A stretch of DNA of 44,207 nucleotides, from IMG/VR virus record IMGVR_UViG_638341086_000016; one strand, given 5' to 3'. The notes below the pieces were generated by a model, which had not been told where the DNA came from, did not search any database, and saw only the letters and a list, made by a program, of their open reading frames with translations. Shown piece by piece: positions 8,224 to 35,762 of the stretch (its first letter is position 1; each line of letters opens with the position of its first letter). The translations under genes and the position numbers were made by a program. This stretch comes from a virus (taxonomy: Duplodnaviria > Heunggongvirae > Uroviricota > Caudoviricetes).

Positions 8224-8570
8224 TTTTCCCCTCCCAGNCGACAGAGAATTTCCAGACGCCCGCCGGTCGCATCCGGCACGGGCAGCCCGACAACGTTCAG
8301 GATCCGGTCACGCCATGGACCACTCAGCACATGAAGTCGTGACGCTGCCGTGATTTCCCGGCCGGACTGACCGCGCACCCAGATGCGGATTTCCGCCTGC
8401 GCCATTTCCGCACCGGACTGCATCCGCTCCCGGCTGCTCCTGCCACGGATATCCGCATGAATTTTCCCGCATGACACCCATTCTTCCGTCATTTCTCCGG
8501 CAGCATTACGGGTTAACACCGGGTTCAGAACACTTATCATCTGTGTCAGACGACCTGCAGATATTGCCAT
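8220..8570 (-). CDS. head closure / head-tail adaptor protein
   Basis: 116 aa; ...ADIRG...SGREITAAS... pattern typical of head-tail joining proteins; contains one ambiguous codon. Confidence 0.6.
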   Translation of the reverse strand: MAISAGRLTQMISVLNPVLTRNAAGEMTEEWVSCGKIHADIRGRSSRERMQSGAEMAQAEIRIWVRGQSGREITAASRLHVLSGPWRDRILNVVGLPVPDATGGRLEILCXLGGEK

Positions 8571-20968: not shown

Positions 20969-22819
20969 TTATGCTGCGGGTGCATTTATCTCCAGCACCA
21001 GACTTTCTATCTCAACGCCATACGCTGCATTTTTTGTAACATCCGTCAGCGTCAGCGCATTCAGCCCCAGTGTCAGACTGTCTTTTATGACCTGGAATGC
21101 CGGGCCAGCCACTCCATTCAGTTTCGGAGTAACCGTGGCACTGCCGGCGGTGAACACCAGCTCCAGCGTCTGCCAGTCGTTACCGTAATCGCCGAACTCC
21201 CCCAGCTTCGTGTTTCCGNCTTTCCTGTGATGCATCAGATTCACTCTGCCGTCAGTGGTCTGAGTNAAGTACGACATCAGGAACGGATTACCGGTACCNG
21301 TCATCGCCACACCATCAGGAACGGGAGCNTCCGTATACAGATAAATCCCCAGCCCGAACTGATNGTTGGTCAGTGCGCCTGACAGGCGGAACTTACAGGT
21401 CAGTCTGCCGCCCTGTGTCAGCAGGGTAATTGTGTCATCCACCGGATGCGTCAGGGACCAGGNTTTATTGCTCTGCTTGGNGATCTTAAATACACCATCT
21501 GACAACTGAATTCCGCCATCCTTAATGCTCCAGCCCTGCGCAGCAGCCTCTCCGGCTGTCGGCAGCAGGGAGATTGTACGGACGGATGTATCTTCAGACG
21601 GCCCTGATGGTGTGTCATCGCCGGGAGAGGGTTTGATCTCCGGGGCTTTACCGCTGATGAAGGCGCTGGTTCGACCAACTGCGTTCAGAATAGCAGTTGC
21701 CAGACGATCAGGAATAATGCCCCTGCGCGCCCATGAACTGAAATGTGTCGGACGATTTGACGATACCCAATTACCATTACTACGGGATTGCGCGCCGTAA
21801 TAACCTGCATCAGCAATATCCGGGTCTTCTGCCGGTAAGTTGGTGGGCGTGTTGTTGCCGTTACCGTCTGTCATGAAGGGCACAAAATAAACGCCCTCAC
21901 TCTCCCTGTTTTTATACCCGCCGTACACGGTGTCGTACTGGGTAGCGTATGTATTTTTCCAGTAATACGTCGTGTCACCACAAATCCACGGCACATCTGC
22001 AGCACTGCCACCATGGCACTGCGCGTTAAACACGGAGAGGTCAGCACGAAACTGTGTCAGCATGGCTGTAAACAGCGCAGGTTGCTGTGCGTGGGTGGCG
22101 GCGCTCATGTCAAACTCACCCTGCATCCAGCAGACGGCCAGCAGAACGTTTTTGGGATTTTTCTGCAATGCCGCTTTTGTGCGGGAAATCAGATCCTGAT
22201 ATAACGGCTTGCCCACCCCCCAGCGTGCCGAATCCTGACTGGCCCCCGTGGACTCGCTGAATGTCCCCTCCGCGCCCTGGGTAAATGCCGAACCACCACG
22301 ACAGCATGGTACCAGCAGGATCCCCGCGTTATTCGGGATATACGGGAGCAGTTTTTTGGCAATATGTAAACCCTGGCCGACACAGCCGTACTGCCCTTTG
22401 CTCAGGTCAGCCCTCGGATGATTCAGCGTACTCATATCCTGCACATCATGCAGACAGTGGTCAGCCGGAATAATATCGTTATATCTGCAGGCAGCCCCGC
22501 CCGGCGTCACTGTACTGCGGCGCGCCAGCTGTTTAATGCGCGGATCCGGAGCATCGTATGAATCCGGCAGCGGAAGCCCTTCACCGTAAGCCATGGCATT
22601 GGACTGCCCGGCCAGTACGATGACGTAGTACCAATCCGGCTCAGATGAAGGGCCGACCTGTGGCTCTCCTTCAATAGCCACCGCCTGCATCAGTGTGTAC
22701 GGCGTAATGGCAACCGGTCCGCCGTATGGCTGCCAGCCCTCTTTCAGTTTGTGTGTCAGCTTTTCCGCAAGGTCTGACGGCGACGCCGCCCTGACAACAT
22801 CATAATGTTTAATCGACAT
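20969..22819 (-). CDS. nanS-p: prophage sialate O-acetylesterase NanS-p (DUF1737 N-domain plus SASA/SGNH esterase domain)
   Basis: 616 aa; N-terminus MSIKHYDVV...; esterase motif VLAGQSNAMAYGEG; position between holin and the stx-equivalent slot; several X residues from ambiguous bases. Confidence 0.8.
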   Translation of the reverse strand: MSIKHYDVVRAASPSDLAEKLTHKLKEGWQPYGGPVAITPYTLMQAVAIEGEPQVGPSSEPDWYYVIVLAGQSNAMAYGEGLPLPDSYDAPDPRIKQLARRSTVTPGGAACRYNDIIPADHCLHDVQDMSTLNHPRADLSKGQYGCVGQGLHIAKKLLPYIPNNAGILLVPCCRGGSAFTQGAEGTFSESTGASQDSARWGVGKPLYQDLISRTKAALQKNPKNVLLAVCWMQGEFDMSAATHAQQPALFTAMLTQFRADLSVFNAQCHGGSAADVPWICGDTTYYWKNTYATQYDTVYGGYKNRESEGVYFVPFMTDGNGNNTPTNLPAEDPDIADAGYYGAQSRSNGNWVSSNRPTHFSSWARRGIIPDRLATAILNAVGRTSAFISGKAPEIKPSPGDDTPSGPSEDTSVRTISLLPTAGEAAAQGWSIKDGGIQLSDGVFKIXKQSNKXWSLTHPVDDTITLLTQGGRLTCKFRLSGALTNXQFGLGIYLYTXAPVPDGVAMXGTGNPFLMSYXTQTTDGRVNLMHHRKXGNTKLGEFGDYGNDWQTLELVFTAGSATVTPKLNGVAGPAFQVIKDSLTLGLNALTLTDVTKNAAYGVEIESLVLEINAPAA

Positions 22820-28060: not shown

Positions 28061-28584
28061 GCCGCCATCCTGACGCCCTGCCCGATCGCCATCAATGCCG
28101 CTTTGGATACNGTAGTAAACATNCGTCGAGGACTGATGAACGGTCGCCAAATCAGCAGCATGGANCCTTTGCTGTTTCCCTTCTTCTCCAGCCCTGTCGA
28201 TGGTTCGATAAAATTAATCCGTCCATCAGTGATAATGCGAACTTCGTCAACACTCTCCAGAGCCTTGCTGAACCATCCGACTGACATATCCTCTGGTACA
28301 AGCATAACTACCGTCTGTCGCTGTTGTATGCACTGCTCAGCGGCTTTTTCCACCCACGGCCTGATATTGCTGTACGGTGGGTTATTCCAGATTGCACCGT
28401 GGCTTACCCACTCAGAATTGAGCGCGTCGTCGGCCTCAGTTAGCCAGTGAGCACACAGAGCATTTTTGTCGCTCGCTGCCGAATCCAGCCAGAATCCAAA
28501 CTCAATATCCAGTGCATCAAAAAGCCAAAGCGGCGTTTGCCAGCAGTCCTTGTCGTGTGCTGGCGTATTTGATTTGATAGTCAT
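28057..28584 (-). CDS. DNA N6-adenine methyltransferase (phage Dam-like)
   Basis: 175 aa; N-terminal ...[13 protein letters not shown]... and catalytic NPPY motif (IWNNPPYSN); C-terminal part contains X from ambiguous bases. Confidence 0.8.
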
Positions 28585-31816: not shown

Positions 31817-32113
31817 TCAGAATTGCATATCAATTTGCTTAGAGTCCCCGGCGGCCACCGGGGATTTTCTCTTTGTGATTTCATCAAGCGCATACTTAAA
31901 AGCCCTGCTAATCGGACTGATGTCTGATGCCATTCCGAAAGCACACAAGACCGAAGCAATAAATCTCCAGTCCGTTCTGCTTATCTTCGATTCATGACAG
32001 CCAATCATCTTTGCCAGACCGCGCTGGGTAAGCGTTGACAGGTTGATGAGTAAATCAGTTTCAGCGCGATCAATTTCTCGCTGTGTTGGCTTGCTGTAGC
32101 TTGCTTGTGCCAT
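31817..32113 (-). CDS. cII: transcriptional activator CII
   Basis: 98 aa; helix-turn-helix ...LAKMIGCHESKISR... and C-terminus ...KQIDMQF parallel to lambda CII ...QIQMEF. Confidence 0.8.
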   Translation of the reverse strand: MAQASYSKPTQREIDRAETDLLINLSTLTQRGLAKMIGCHESKISRTDWRFIASVLCAFGMASDISPISRAFKYALDEITKRKSPVAAGDSKQIDMQF

Positions 32114-32180
32114 TTGTTAATTTTCCTATATTGATATTGAGTTATAGCGGCACACCCAATGGATTTGCCGCTGATGTTTG

Positions 32181-32200
32181 CTCACCCGGTTAGAGGTGAA
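32181..32200 (-). promoter_or_regulatory. nutR boxB hairpin (phage-21 type)
   Basis: - strand TTCACCTCTAACCGGGTGAG between cro and cII. Confidence 0.6.
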
Positions 32201-32230
32201 AGGCCATGACTGTTAAAGAGCGGGTACTGC

Positions 32231-32449
32231 TTAGGCGGCTTTGTTACTGGATGGAGGGAAAACATCATCCAAAGAACATTGGCACCCTAACTTCCTGAGG
32301 CCTTCTACGATCATTCGGCAATCGTTAAGGCCAGGAGTACGGATATTCAGCTCATAGTTGGCGATGCGGGATTGCCCCCAACCAATTGCCGAAGCTAGTA
32401 CAGCTTGCGAAACTCCGATTTTTTTTCGCTGCTGGGCAATTTTGTTCAT
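32231..32449 (-). CDS. cro: Cro-like repressor (HTH)
   Basis: Internal start MNKIAQQRKKIGVSQAVLASAIGWGQSRIANYE... (about 72 aa); divergent from cI. Confidence 0.75.
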   Translation of the reverse strand: MNKIAQQRKKIGVSQAVLASAIGWGQSRIANYELNIRTPGLNDCRMIVEGLRKLGCQCSLDDVFPPSSNKAA

Positions 32450-32557
32450 TGCGGTCTCCCTAGCATTAATCACACACCCATTACACACAATTTGTGATTA
32501 ACAGTCAACCTCAATTCGTGTACAGAGTTCAATCACGTTGCGTGTTACATTTAAGGG
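32450..32557. promoter_or_regulatory. immunity operator/promoter region OR with PR and PRM
   Basis: Intergenic region between divergent cro and cI containing the 9-bp inverted repeat TTAATCACA...TGTGATTAA and further TGTGA/TCACA half-sites also seen near OL. Confidence 0.6.
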
Positions 32558-33205
32558 ATGAAAACGATGCATGAAATTATCGGGGAAAGGATCAAGTCCC
32601 TTAGAGAAGCTAAAGGACTTAGCCAGGCTCAATTGGCCAAGCTTTGCGGCTGGGCTGCGCCTTCACGCCTGGGGAACTACGAGTTAGGAACAAGAAAGGT
32701 TAGCGCGGATGACGCGCTGGTTCTTGGGGCGGCACTCGGCGTATCTCCGGCAAAAATAATGTTTGGCGAGGATTCAGACGCCGTATTTCGCCAATATGAA
32801 TACCCGTTATTTTCTTCAGTGCAGGCCGGGCCATTTTCGGAGGTGGGAAGCTACACAGCCAGCGATGCAAAGGCATGGGTCCCAACGACCACAAAAGCCA
32901 GCGAAAAAGCTTTCTGGCTTGAGGTGAAGGGGCATTCAATGACGGCGCCTCAGGGGGTTCGTCCAAGTTTTCCGGAAGGCATGCTGATACTCGTTGATCC
33001 GGCTGAGCCGGTAGAGTCTGGGGATTTCTGCGTGGCTTCTGCAAATGGTGATTCAGAGGCAACGTTCAAGAAGTATGAGAAGGATGCAGGGGTTAGTTAC
33101 CTGGTACCTTTAAACCCGGCATATAGAACCCTGGATTGCGACCATAGCTGCCGCATCATAGGCAAGGTAGTTAAGGCGCAGTGGCCTGAAGAGACGTTTG
33201 GCTGA
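32558..33205 (+). CDS. cI: CI prophage repressor (HTH plus LexA-like S24 autoprotease domain)
   Basis: 215 aa; N-terminal HTH ([12 protein letters not shown]), C-terminal ...GHSMTAPQG... and ...ATFKKYE... signature of S24 repressors. Confidence 0.9.
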
Positions 33206-33327
33206 TCGGCAAGGTGTTCTGGTCGGCGCATAGCTGGTAATCCAACTTTTCCCTGTTCTTTTTATGCAAATTAATCTAATGAAATTGAAAAGATTTTTAC
33301 CTATTTTGTTGGTTCAGGAGAACATAA

Positions 33328-33609
33328 GTGAGCGATAAACAAGAAGTTTCCTTAGCACATATCAATGATGTGCTGGAGTCCAAAAATTATATTGAAACTA
33401 ATGCTGATGGGGTTGTAACCATCGGAACGGATAACAATGGCTACGAAGTTTTTAACTTCGTTTTTCTCAATAGCACCCCTGTCATCGGCCATATGAATGG
33501 CGAAATCGCAGTGGCAGGAATGCAGCGCACTAAGGTTGCGTCCGTGACTTTAAGTAAACAGAAGGCCTTCGATTTCTATCAGTCCTTGAAAAGCATGTTC
33601 GAGGAATAA
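33328..33609 (+). CDS. hypothetical protein, first gene of a two-gene cassette in the rexAB position
   Basis: 93 aa, GTG start 8 nt after AGGAG; AT-rich; 120-bp AT-rich spacer after cI. Confidence 0.5.
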   Translation: MSDKQEVSLAHINDVLESKNYIETNADGVVTIGTDNNGYEVFNFVFLNSTPVIGHMNGEIAVAGMQRTKVASVTLSKQKAFDFYQSLKSMFEE

Positions 33610-33615
33610 AAGCTG

Positions 33616-34167
33616 ATGAATGCAGCTCAATCATCTTTGGATGAGGGAAAGCTAGTAATTGCTTACTCTGATAAGAATGGCTCTACAGTAGGGCTGGAAT
33701 TTTCTTCTGTAGCATCAAGCCAAGCAACGCTCTTGATGAAAGCTTGTTCTGTTGCTGCTTCAGATAAAGAAAAACGGATTGTCACATCGGTTGTGATGGA
33801 TGATACTGAGATCATTCAAACAACAAGTGATGATGGAGGCGACGACATGGATAAGCGATTAGCAGTTCTTGAAGCTGAAGTTGCGCACATCAAGAGCAGC
33901 ATGGCAGGAATTAAAGAGGATACCCGGAAAATATCTTCTGATTCTACTGACGCCAAAAGAGACACCGCTGTACTTTTACAGAAGAGCCTGGATTTTGATG
34001 CTTCATTATCTAAGAAACCATCGGTTGACTACTTTGAAGCTAAATTTTCCGCTTTGGAAACCAAGATAGCAGATGTAAAAGTATGGATGCTCGGGGTTCT
34101 CCTGGCCTCGCTTGCTATGCCAACTATATTTTTCCTAATAAACTTGTACCTTAAGAAAGGTCAGTAA
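33616..34167 (+). CDS. hypothetical tail-anchored membrane protein with central coiled coil, second gene of the cassette
   Basis: 183 aa; acidic N-domain, heptad-like middle (RLAVLEAEVAHIKSSMAGIKEDTRK), single C-terminal hydrophobic helix VWMLGVLLASLAMPTIFFLINLYL. Confidence 0.5.
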   Translation: MNAAQSSLDEGKLVIAYSDKNGSTVGLEFSSVASSQATLLMKACSVAASDKEKRIVTSVVMDDTEIIQTTSDDGGDDMDKRLAVLEAEVAHIKSSMAGIKEDTRKISSDSTDAKRDTAVLLQKSLDFDASLSKKPSVDYFEAKFSALETKIADVKVWMLGVLLASLAMPTIFFLINLYLKKGQ

Positions 34168-34177
34168 TTTAGCAAAT

Positions 34178-34200
34178 CCGGCCACCGAGCCGGGTTTTTT
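34178..34200 (+). terminator. intrinsic terminator after the cI cassette
   Basis: CCGGC-CACCGA-GCCGG followed by GTTTTTTATT on + strand. Confidence 0.55.
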
Positions 34201-34419
34201 ATTGCCCGCCGATCACTATCAGGACAGCACCTGCCCGCCGGTCCAAACTATTGATTAAATTACTATAATTCTTAATACAACTCCCATATCCCGCCATCTC
34301 GCCACCACCCCATTCGCTCGTTTTTCGAACTTTTCAGCACCCATCCTGCTGTTGCCACCGACTTAAGTAAGCAAAACCATCGCGGGTAAAACTATTTACA
34401 CAAAAAAATCATACACATA

Positions 34420-34490
34420 ACGTGTCACACCTTTATTTTACACATTTTGTGATTGACCATTAAATCACAATATGTGACTATCATTTCCAT
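34420..34490 (+). promoter_or_regulatory. OL/PL operator-promoter region
   Basis: Palindromes TGTGATT-n7-AATCACA and TCACAATATGTGA with a TTGACC -35-like hexamer, upstream of nutL and N. Confidence 0.5.
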
Positions 34491-34549
34491 CAGCAGGACG
34501 CTGAGACGCCACAAGGAACAGATTGGCAGGCTCTTTAACATCGACGAAC

Positions 34550-34569
34550 TCTCAACCTAACCGTTGAGA
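34550..34569 (+). promoter_or_regulatory. nutL boxB hairpin (phage-21 type)
   Basis: TCTCAACCTAACCGTTGAGA: 7-bp stem, 6-nt loop, about 110 nt upstream of N. Confidence 0.6.
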
Positions 34570-34679
34570 CCAGAACTTGAGTGGTTTTGGGGATGGCGCG
34601 AATTGCAGCTGCAAGACAGCGATCGAGAAGATAAACACCTCGACGCGTCATGCGCCAAAGCCACTTAAAGGAGACCATC

Positions 34680-34952
34680 ATGGTAACCATTGTCTGGAAA
34701 GAATCCAAAGGTACGGCAAAAAGCCGCTACAAAGCTCGCAGAGCAGAACTTATTGCCGAGCGACGCAGTAATGAAGCACTGGCGCGAAAAATTGCGCTAA
34801 AGCTCTCTGGTTGCGTCAGAGCAGACAAAGCAGCATCACTCGGAAGCCTTCGCTGCAAGAAGGCAGATGAATGCAGTGGAAGTATTTGCCTGCCAAACGT
34901 AGCCATTTACGCGGCAGGCTACCGGAAATCAAAACAACTGACGGCGAGATGA
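34680..34952 (+). CDS. N: early antiterminator N (phage-21-type arginine-rich motif)
   Basis: Internal start with AAAGGAG RBS gives MVTIVWKESKGTAKSRYKARRAELIAERRSNEALARKIA..., as I recall the phage-21 N ARM peptide. Confidence 0.8.
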   Translation: MVTIVWKESKGTAKSRYKARRAELIAERRSNEALARKIALKLSGCVRADKAASLGSLRCKKADECSGSICLPNVAIYAAGYRKSKQLTAR

Positions 34953-34968
34953 TAAATTAATTTGCTAA

Positions 34969-35550
34969 TTACTTGTTTTTGCCATGCTTATCCTGAGCGA
35001 TAAGTTCATCCATAAGACTGTCTTTCTTCCCAGCAAACCTAATGTAGCACTCATTTCTATAGCGTTCCGGGATAACAAAACGGTCGATTTCAGGATATCC
35101 AGTAGCAGAAGGTACCCGAATAAGAAGCCCTTTTTCGAGCAATGAGATTGCTTCAGGGCTTCCCTTTTCTGTCTTTAGCTGGTTATTAGCGGCTACAGCG
35201 AATGCCAAATACGCTCTTTCTCCAAGAGTTAACGAATCAAACAAATCTTGCACGTATTTCTCTTCTTTAGATTTGCGCTTCTGAGCAGCGAATATCTCAA
35301 TTCTTTCAGTCACAGCGTGATAAGCGGAATTAACAACGCCGTTAAGCACATAGCTAACGCAAAACAACAGGATGTAATACATCCAGTAATGAGGAAGGAT
35401 TTCTGGATTATGCAGGTTTATCCATTCTTTTACGCTTACAGGCATAACAATAATCAATATAATCAGGATGATTAGCATATGAATCAACTGTTTAAGTGTC
35501 ATTCCTTGCAGGAAAAAATGCATTAGTTCCTGCCACCATGAGTTGTTCAT
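34969..35550 (-). CDS. sieB: superinfection exclusion protein B
   Basis: 193 aa MNNSWWQELMHFFLQGMTLKQLIHMLIILIILIIVMPVSV... with N-terminal TM helices, lambda/P22 SieB-like; opposite strand to N as in lambda. Confidence 0.8.
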   Translation of the reverse strand: MNNSWWQELMHFFLQGMTLKQLIHMLIILIILIIVMPVSVKEWINLHNPEILPHYWMYYILLFCVSYVLNGVVNSAYHAVTERIEIFAAQKRKSKEEKYVQDLFDSLTLGERAYLAFAVAANNQLKTEKGSPEAISLLEKGLLIRVPSATGYPEIDRFVIPERYRNECYIRFAGKKDSLMDELIAQDKHGKNK

Positions 35551-35762
35551 CGGCGTTTCTCTTTTGCTCTCTGTAGGGGTGAATAGAGTTTATCCGATTT
35601 CTCGCTGTAGGGGTACACGAGAACCACCGAGCCTGATGTGGTTAAAAGACAGGCATACTAATAAACACTGCACTGTGTATTCATTCCAACGAGTGAATAC
35701 ACTGAGCAATGTCGCTCGTAACTAAACAGGAGCCGACTTGTTCTGATTATTGGAAATCTTCT

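Follow-up and report, generated by a model that had tools for sequence, protein, structure and literature searches.

Lysogen-expressed exclusion genes of temperate phages have two classical homes. In lambdoid phages this is the interval between cI and N, which is described as a frequent site of morons, among them rexAB and bstA and presumably also the gene for Stk in phage 933W. The lambda pair, RexA and RexB, comprises one soluble and one inner-membrane product, both made in the lysogen, and RexB is a four-helix polytopic protein that serves as an ion channel once the soluble subunit activates it, with exclusion of T4 rII as the outcome. BstA of the Salmonella prophage BTP1 likewise occupies the moron slot downstream of cI and is transcribed from the cI promoter, whereas P22 carries orf59a-sieA in the second home, between mnt and gene 16. 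Here, we describe a two-gene cassette, A-B, at positions 33206-34200 of the virus record IMGVR_UViG_638341086_000016; the window, that is, the whole 44,207-nt stretch that was analyzed, is a lambdoid Stx1-type prophage in the orientation opposite to the lambda map. A sequence-only reading had proposed A-B as a candidate exclusion pair. We find that the cassette is real and mobile, consists of two genes, is made in uninduced cells, and lies in the rexAB slot. By analogy, we tentatively interpret A-B as a Rex-like post-entry exclusion module of the abortive-infection type that is not homologous to RexAB.

A two-gene cassette in the rexAB slot

The position of the cassette is best seen in coliphage HK544, the immunity region of which was reportedly deposited by Degnan et al in 2007. 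HK544 carries the cI of lambda and matches lambda from cI through 35 nt past the stop codon; a 934-nt A-B cassette then takes the place of the 1365-nt rexA-rexB segment, and homology is regained at the stop codon of rexB and the tIMM hairpin. A-B and rexAB thus share the same position to the base, between the 35-nt post-cI junction and tIMM, and their proposed equivalence of location is confirmed at the nucleotide level. In the window, cI (32558-33205, + strand) encodes a protein with helix-turn-helix (HTH) and Peptidase_S24 domains. The left junction consists of its last 27 nt and the 35 nt after its stop (33179-33240, +), is 98.4% identical to lambda over these 62 nt, and is conserved with lambda, 434, SfI, mEpX1, and HK544; homology to lambda ends at 33240. 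The 35 nt that follow the stop codon (33206-33240) show 97-100% identity in lambda, 434, SfI, ev243, mEpX1, and HK544, whatever the cargo, and look like a conserved boundary for cargo exchange.

Downstream of this boundary, an AT-rich leader that is part of the cassette (33241-33327, +) ends in the Shine-Dalgarno sequence of A. The 122-nt gap between cI and A is kept behind four different repressor types, and our consensus scan found neither a terminator nor a promoter within it, so that A-B is probably transcribed by read-through from PRM/PRE. The right edge is formed by a + strand intrinsic terminator homologous to lambda tIMM (34174-34203), which had also been recognized in the sequence-only reading. 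It comprises a hairpin of 9 pairs (34174-34197; -13 kcal/mol, z -2.4) and a T run, and is annotated as Timm in HK544 and as the rho-independent terminator of the pRM transcript in VT1-Sakai. Within 32200-34800, the only sigma-70-like match (TTGTCA-17-GATACT, 33779-33807, +) falls within B. It precedes the internal GGAGG and Met78 codon described below by about 40 nt, a placement that recalls lambda pLit within rexA. Since shuffled sequence averages 3.3 such matches, we do not regard this site as evidence of a promoter.

Gene A (33328-33609, +; ECs2991, Z3359, HK544c104, WP_001280993.1; phrog_12039) has a GTG start, with an AGGAG Shine-Dalgarno sequence (33316-33320) 7 nt upstream, and encodes an acidic soluble protein of 93 aa (isoelectric point, pI, 4.85) that contains no hydrophobic segment. 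Gene B (33616-34167, +; ECs2992, Z3360, HK544c103, H0053, WP_000990548.1; phrog_12602) begins with ATG 6 nt past the stop codon of A, is preceded by GAGGA at 33601-33605, and encodes 183 aa. Start codons, spacing, and lengths all agree with the initial gene calls. The earlier description of the pair as unannotated was correct only in part: HK544, RefSeq, and Sakai already list both genes, each with a hypothetical protein as its product, but A is missing from the VT1-Sakai record AP000400, which lists only B, and is reduced to a 35-aa, 3.9-kDa entry (Z3359) in EDL933. Both PHROG families are of unknown function. As the two proteins are already catalogued, any novelty lies in their function and modular design.

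Substitution patterns indicate that A and B are real genes under purifying selection. Between A and its 82%-identical copy in locus L021, pairwise pN and pS (nonsynonymous and synonymous differences) are 0.098 and 0.726, with an omega of ~0.04; the N-domain of B gives an omega of 0.13-0.2 against close relatives. Both genes have a G+C content of 0.42, compared with 0.525 in cI and 0.50 in N, in line with the AT-richness noted before; the spacer at 33206-33327 is lower still (0.36), and the whole window averages 0.517. The 995-base interval 33206-34200 is 100% identical to E. coli 2013C-3342 and 99.8-99.9% identical to VT1-Sakai (Sp15), phiSTEC801-Stx1a, EDL933, and coliphage HK544. Stx1-type prophages of E. 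coli O157:H7 (Sakai Sp15, EDL933 CP-933V) contain the cassette. Among 5426 complete E. coli genomes, 93 have it; the cI type of the window occurs in 104 genomes.

Expression without induction is supported by a published shotgun proteome of the uninduced O157:H7 strain 86-24, which carries both this cI and this cassette. The cells came from stationary-phase LB cultures and from piglet gut, and just 13-16% of prophage-encoded proteins were detected (PMC3210124). A (Z3359) was present in all four fractions and cI in one, whereas B (Z3360) was found only in the membrane-enriched, high-relative-molecular-mass fraction of size-exclusion chromatography, with an APEX value of 858 versus 0 (PMC3210124). 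The same source proposes that Z3360 is an atypical lipoprotein, its authors noting "no hydr LS" (PMC3210124). We rejected this assignment: the motif, MKAC44S, lies 44 residues into the protein, where the cytoplasmic N-domain is helical, and is not preceded by a hydrophobic leader. As B has no signal peptide, its C-terminal membrane helix explains the fractionation better.

The same data bear on two readings of A-B that do not involve exclusion. The cassette could be a moron that serves host fitness or virulence and has no bearing on phages, such as an envelope stress or colonization factor of enterohemorrhagic E. coli (EHEC). It resides in Stx1-type prophages of O157:H7, its products were detected in a study of LB-grown and piglet-intestine cells (the supplementary rows of which do not distinguish the contributing samples), and one comparative genomic hybridization study lists both genes as lineage-specific. 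However, the same cassette is found in HK544, a K-12 coliphage, and in Pantoea, Serratia, Rahnella, Cronobacter, and Klebsiella prophages; moreover, B exposes essentially nothing outside the cytoplasmic membrane, unlike Bor or Lom. We thus consider a role of this kind improbable.

We give similarly little credence to a toxin-antitoxin (TA)-like addiction or stress module, in which B would be a membrane toxin restrained by A, and the pair would stabilize the prophage or promote persistence without sensing phages. Two small adjacent genes with tight spacing, cognate pairing, and a membrane-active candidate in B fit such a module, as does the better conservation of the upstream soluble protein (mean column identity of 76% for A and 58% for B). 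Yet neither A nor B shows similarity to known TA families, and the proteome data place the two at similar APEX levels in stationary-phase cells with no evident toxicity, although the value for A is unreliable because Z3359 was quantified against the 35-aa entry. Many TA systems are themselves abortive-infection systems, so that this alternative overlaps with Rex-like exclusion.

Architecture of B and its co-variation with A

B is a C-tail-anchored inner-membrane protein with about 155 cytoplasmic residues, which are arranged as a small N-domain, a flexible acidic and glycine-containing linker, and a conserved coiled coil. The acidic N-domain, the coiled coil, and the single C-terminal hydrophobic helix had all been predicted from the sequence alone, and composition, heptad pattern, and hydropathy agree with each of them. 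The N-terminal module (residues 1-73; 33616-33834, +) contains a beta-hairpin and a helix (residues 10-47), followed by an acidic linker of low model confidence. In the AlphaFold2 model, the predicted local distance difference test (pLDDT) score is 65 overall, 70-81 at residues 10-47, and below 50 at residues 59-75; residues 1-77 contain 13 D/E versus 6 K/R and have a pI of 4.2. Residues 78 to ~153 are helical, with hydrophobic side chains at 12 of 17 heptad a/d positions. They belong to a conserved coiled-coil core (residues 78-156; 33847-34083, +) with the signature M-x-(K/T)-R-LAVLE-x-(D/E)V-x-HIK ... AV-LQK ... LSKKPS, which is common to phrog_3556 and to 661 proteins at E <= 0.001 in a representative library. 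The transmembrane helix, W157-L179 (34084-34152, +; mean Kyte-Doolittle hydropathy of 2.15 over residues 157-175), is followed only by KKGQ. Exposure to the periplasm is thus limited to at most four residues past the membrane helix, with 0-4 in most relatives.

Five proteins of 900-1600 aa (P0088, P0089, P0112, P0119, and P0152) match the B core (profile positions ~61-133) in seven to nine separate stretches each. The LAVLE-x-V-x-HIK pattern is accordingly also a tandem coiled-coil repeat of very long proteins.

The N-domain of B had also been suggested to echo A. We dropped such a duplication: the BLASTP alignment of the two (E = 0.088) covers a different region, and a profile-profile comparison with hhalign gave a probability of 0.3%, or 0.2% with deeper profiles. 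What is left is a short hairpin-turn motif that is not significant.

Alignments of B with its relatives are mosaic. Several unrelated N-terminal modules precede an invariant D-G-G-D-x-M-x-R-LAVLE-x-V-x-HIK core, and at least four unrelated, interchangeable types of C-terminal transmembrane helix follow it. Across 33 distinct pairs, the divergence of A tracks that of the B N-module closely (Spearman 0.81, Mantel p <= 0.0005), but that of the core only weakly (0.37) and that of the C-terminus not at all (-0.10). The N-module and the core of B, though adjacent, correlate at only 0.28. Pairwise pN values reveal the same mosaic: locus L038 combines a near-identical core and C-terminus with a distant A and N-module, and loci L021 and L024 show the reverse. 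These patterns indicate that A is inherited as a unit with the N-terminal domain of B, while the core and membrane helix of B are exchanged independently. We infer from this co-variation that A binds, or docks on, the N-module of B, and recombination is presumably tolerated at the glycine/acidic linker.

The border between linker and core may have a second role. An internal GGAGG (33835-33839, +) lies 7 nt before the codon for Met78 (33847-33849, +), which makes this methionine the candidate start of a short isoform, B' (residues 78-183). G74, G75, and the methionine are invariant or nearly so, and the methionine is present in 44 of 44 distinct relatives. In DGGD-type sequences, the third base of the first glycine codon is always A or G, while that of the next glycine codon varies among C, A, and T. 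The predicted pairing with the anti-Shine-Dalgarno sequence averages -9.3 kcal/mol versus -8.1 kcal/mol for synonymous recodings, a weak test, as the per-sequence p values range from 0.1 to 0.9 and the sequences are related; in addition, some 40% of Gly-Gly coding sequences would resemble a Shine-Dalgarno sequence in any case. Taken together, the conserved internal site is suggestive of a second, short product of B. Precedents for two products from one reading frame are the P22 SieB/Esc and lambda S105/S107 pairs, which, similar to the putative B/B', arise from an in-frame internal start in a phage membrane or exclusion gene.

We also considered whether "stand-alone" B-core relatives of 93-107 aa represent independent genes. 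One of them, P0059, was called by the gene caller from this very methionine, which fits the candidate internal start, but in its contig (L118) the frame is open for 75 codons upstream and encodes an N-domain. Its start is thus a choice of the gene caller, and we abandoned the idea of independent genes. Genuine stand-alone core forms are likely confined to loci in which the upstream frame overlaps the partner gene (L093 and L110).

Relatives, repressor linkage, and shared exclusion slots

Relatives of the cassette are found across Enterobacterales with a constant layout, in which the gene for a small soluble partner precedes that for a coiled-coil protein bearing a single membrane helix at its C-terminus. 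A word-seeded search returned 21 clusters each for A and B; with a profile built from divergent A sequences, the A family grew to about 60 clusters, all from Enterobacterales and all named hypothetical. All 30 viral contigs retrieved with A have B directly after it. Scanning with B added 67 further loci, for a total of 44 distinct B-like open reading frames (ORFs) over all loci, and a scan of GTDB with the B profile returned one locus only. An A-family gene is located immediately upstream of 33 of these 44 ORFs. At the remaining loci, the place of A is taken by unrelated small partners. These are Zn-ribbon proteins (115-137 aa) and two further families, one of 132-150 aa and one of 98 aa; in readable contexts, such loci again lie behind a cI-type or HTH repressor. 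The alternative partners have no match in Pfam or NCBIfam, and their PADLOC hits, like those of the B-like relatives, are limited to coiled-coil noise.

Linkage to repressors is a regular feature of these loci. The gene just upstream of A encodes 18 distinct proteins over the loci: 14 contain HTH_3 (12 of them together with Peptidase_S24), three are of the Arc/Mnt type, and one is a DUF3024 protein, so that a maintenance repressor of the cI or Mnt type directly precedes the pair in 17 of 18 cases. With the exception of one copy at 91%, the identity of these repressors to the cI of the window is only 6-47%; the cassette thus moves between immunity types. Together with the low G+C content, this linkage to many unrelated repressors substantiates the moron behavior anticipated in the sequence-only reading.

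Such tight linkage, with probable co-transcription, to maintenance repressors of many types could alternatively mean that A-B modulates the life cycle of its own prophage, as a membrane tether or timer for induction, for the lysis-lysogeny switch, or for lysis, or as an XhlA-like holin accessory. RexA and RexB are known to modulate the lambda switch, and PBSX XhlA, similar to B, has a cytoplasmic coiled coil followed by one C-terminal transmembrane helix. Furthermore, two relatives of B match phrog_937 ("hemolysin") at ~5e-6, and relatives reach the Pfam XhlA family (PF10779) below threshold (13.5 bits versus a cutoff of 34.7, E ~0.08). B itself, however, has no XhlA hit at E <= 1, and while XhlA is encoded in a lysis cassette beside the holin, the A-B pair lies behind repressors and in no lysis cassette among the loci read. 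The cassette and rexAB are also exchangeable, and most phages with the same switch lack the cassette; even the cI type of the window is found in more genomes (104) than the cassette (93). It is thus no core regulatory part, and we regard this alternative as quite unlikely.

P22-like prophages of Salmonella, Serratia, and Leclercia carry relatives of the pair between mnt and gene 16. This is the position of sieA, which is itself present in only 22 of 66 P22-like phages. A-B might exclude superinfecting phages at the entry step, as P22 SieA and HK97 gp15 do, with the transmembrane helix of B hindering the DNA-injection conduit or an inner-membrane host factor and A tuning or stabilizing B. The occupation of the sieA slot directly after mnt speaks for this possibility, as does the membrane association of B, shared with the inner-membrane protein SieA, and the exchangeable helix types could reflect target specificity in the membrane. 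On the other hand, almost none of B is exposed to the periplasm, and both A and the B N-domain, which vary and co-evolve, are cytoplasmic. SieA blocks DNA injection alone, whereas A-B is a pair with cytoplasmic variable parts, and we detected no homology between them; to our knowledge, the described entry blockers are single proteins that work without a soluble cytoplasmic partner. An entry block therefore appears unlikely.

Several loci deviate from the common layout. In a Pantoea-type prophage (L038, 5692-6012) and a P22-like Serratia prophage (L044, 4957-5262), an extra small gene follows B and precedes N or gene 16, which shows that the slot can hold further cargo. The products of both extra genes have an N-terminal hydrophobic leader, in the Pantoea one with a lipobox-like LLTGC, and match no Pfam family. 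In L086 (662-2977), an IS91-family transposase gene (Y2_Tnp and Zn_Tnp_IS91, 419 aa) separates the A-like and B-like genes, and the B-like reading frame is lengthened to 225 aa.

A possible Rex-like exclusion function

The co-evolving variable parts of the pair are cytoplasmic, and both of its slots are classical homes of lysogen-expressed exclusion genes; for these reasons, we rate a Rex-like post-entry function as the most likely reading of A-B, without considering it established. That the bulk of B and its soluble partner lie in the cytoplasm, with hardly any residues beyond the helix, likewise argues for sensing that takes place once the phage has entered, and not at the cell surface. In the proposed mechanism, A and B would be made together with the repressor, and A would dock on the N-terminal domain of B. 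The variable soluble part, that is, A with the B N-domain or the unrelated small partners at other loci, would recognize a cytoplasmic cue of the superinfecting phage. The constant part, formed by the oligomerizing coiled coil and the membrane helix of B, would then perturb the inner membrane and stop the infection, while the short isoform from Met78, lacking the N-domain, might modulate full-length B.

The likeness to RexA/RexB is one of organization: in both cases, two genes encode one soluble and one inner-membrane product that are expressed in the lysogen, with co-transcription of A-B and the repressor being probable. The proteins differ in sequence and build. There is no sequence similarity; rexA is 840 nt long in the lambda record (~279 aa), compared with the 93 aa of A, and RexB crosses the membrane with four helices, whereas B has a single C-terminal anchor (residues 157-179) and a long cytoplasmic coiled coil. 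BstA and Stk are single large cytoplasmic proteins with no similarity to A or B.

Database searches revealed no described relatives either. In Pfam, A is without a hit and B reaches coiled-coil families only below threshold; neither protein matches NCBIfam or any of the 5027 defense-protein models of PADLOC-DB v2.0.0, so that no known defense system is assigned to the pair. The Rex families of Pfam, PHROG, and NCBIfam are matched by neither protein, nor is the SieB family (PF14163), and no kinase was matched in Pfam, PADLOC, or NCBIfam; the earlier impression that A and B do not resemble known exclusion proteins thus stands. Sequence searches of the PDB with A and B profiles retrieved generic coiled coils only, and Foldseek with the B model found no match at E < 0.1 in BFVD or the PDB, in agreement with the lack of a recognizable fold.

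A number of observations weigh against an exclusion function. Neither A nor B matches a known defense protein or fold, and our literature search returned no paper that reports a phenotype, assigns them a function, or links them to phage resistance. The AlphaFold2 model of A (pLDDT 45) is too poor to use, which leaves co-variation as the sole basis for the A-B interaction. Part of that signal could stem from the physical linkage between A and the 5' end of B, although the low correlation between the adjacent N-module and core implies that linkage alone explains it poorly. A single membrane helix would be a weak basis for a pore. Finally, one A-B pair lies at a prophage end beside tail-fiber genes and has no upstream repressor, and a remote B-like protein (E = 1e-11) is encoded among metabolic genes in a non-phage context; a shared function should thus not be assumed for the far tail of the 661 hits.

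A more far-reaching proposal, which we consider doubtful, is that A-B founds a modular, repressor-linked defense family of Enterobacterales prophages. A constant C-tail-anchored coiled-coil effector (phrog_12602/phrog_3556) would be combined with interchangeable soluble sensors (the A family, the Zn-ribbon proteins, and two or more further families of small proteins); two products would arise through Met78, the short form regulating the long one, and the pair would be a functional analogue of RexAB in Stx1 prophages. If A-B does mediate phage exclusion, the small number of repressor-linked exclusion systems that are understood would gain a new protein family, and the cI-N slot of lambdoid phages and the mnt-16 slot of P22-like phages would be seen to exchange the same cargo. 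The combination of a constant effector with variable partners, and the possible internal start, would offer concrete, testable mechanisms. The exclusion reading is easy to test in HK544, a K-12 coliphage with lambda immunity. Given its distribution in O157:H7 prophages and in 93 of the 5426 genomes, the cassette could affect EHEC phage typing, phage therapy, and competition between prophages.

The genes around the cassette are those of a lambdoid immunity region. cII (31817-32113, -) and cro (32231-32449, -) lie on the far side of cI, and N (34680-34952, +) follows the terminator. The N ORF as listed starts at an ATG at 34650 and encodes 100 aa, while VT1-Sakai and RefSeq annotate the 273-nt gene at 34680-34952 (90 aa, MVTIVWK...). 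Directly after N lies a full-length sieB (34969-35550, -; PF14163, E = 1.1e-25; phrog_1301), so that, in addition to the candidate pair, this prophage has a known exclusion gene at a distance of about 800 nt. An Rfam search of 32000-35600 returned no match. The window contains 15 single ambiguous bases (at 8238, 21219-21481, 28111-28165, 29018, 30467, 30506, and 36712), none of them within the A-B interval; the one at 36712 appears as X in a 124-aa ORF (36482-36856).

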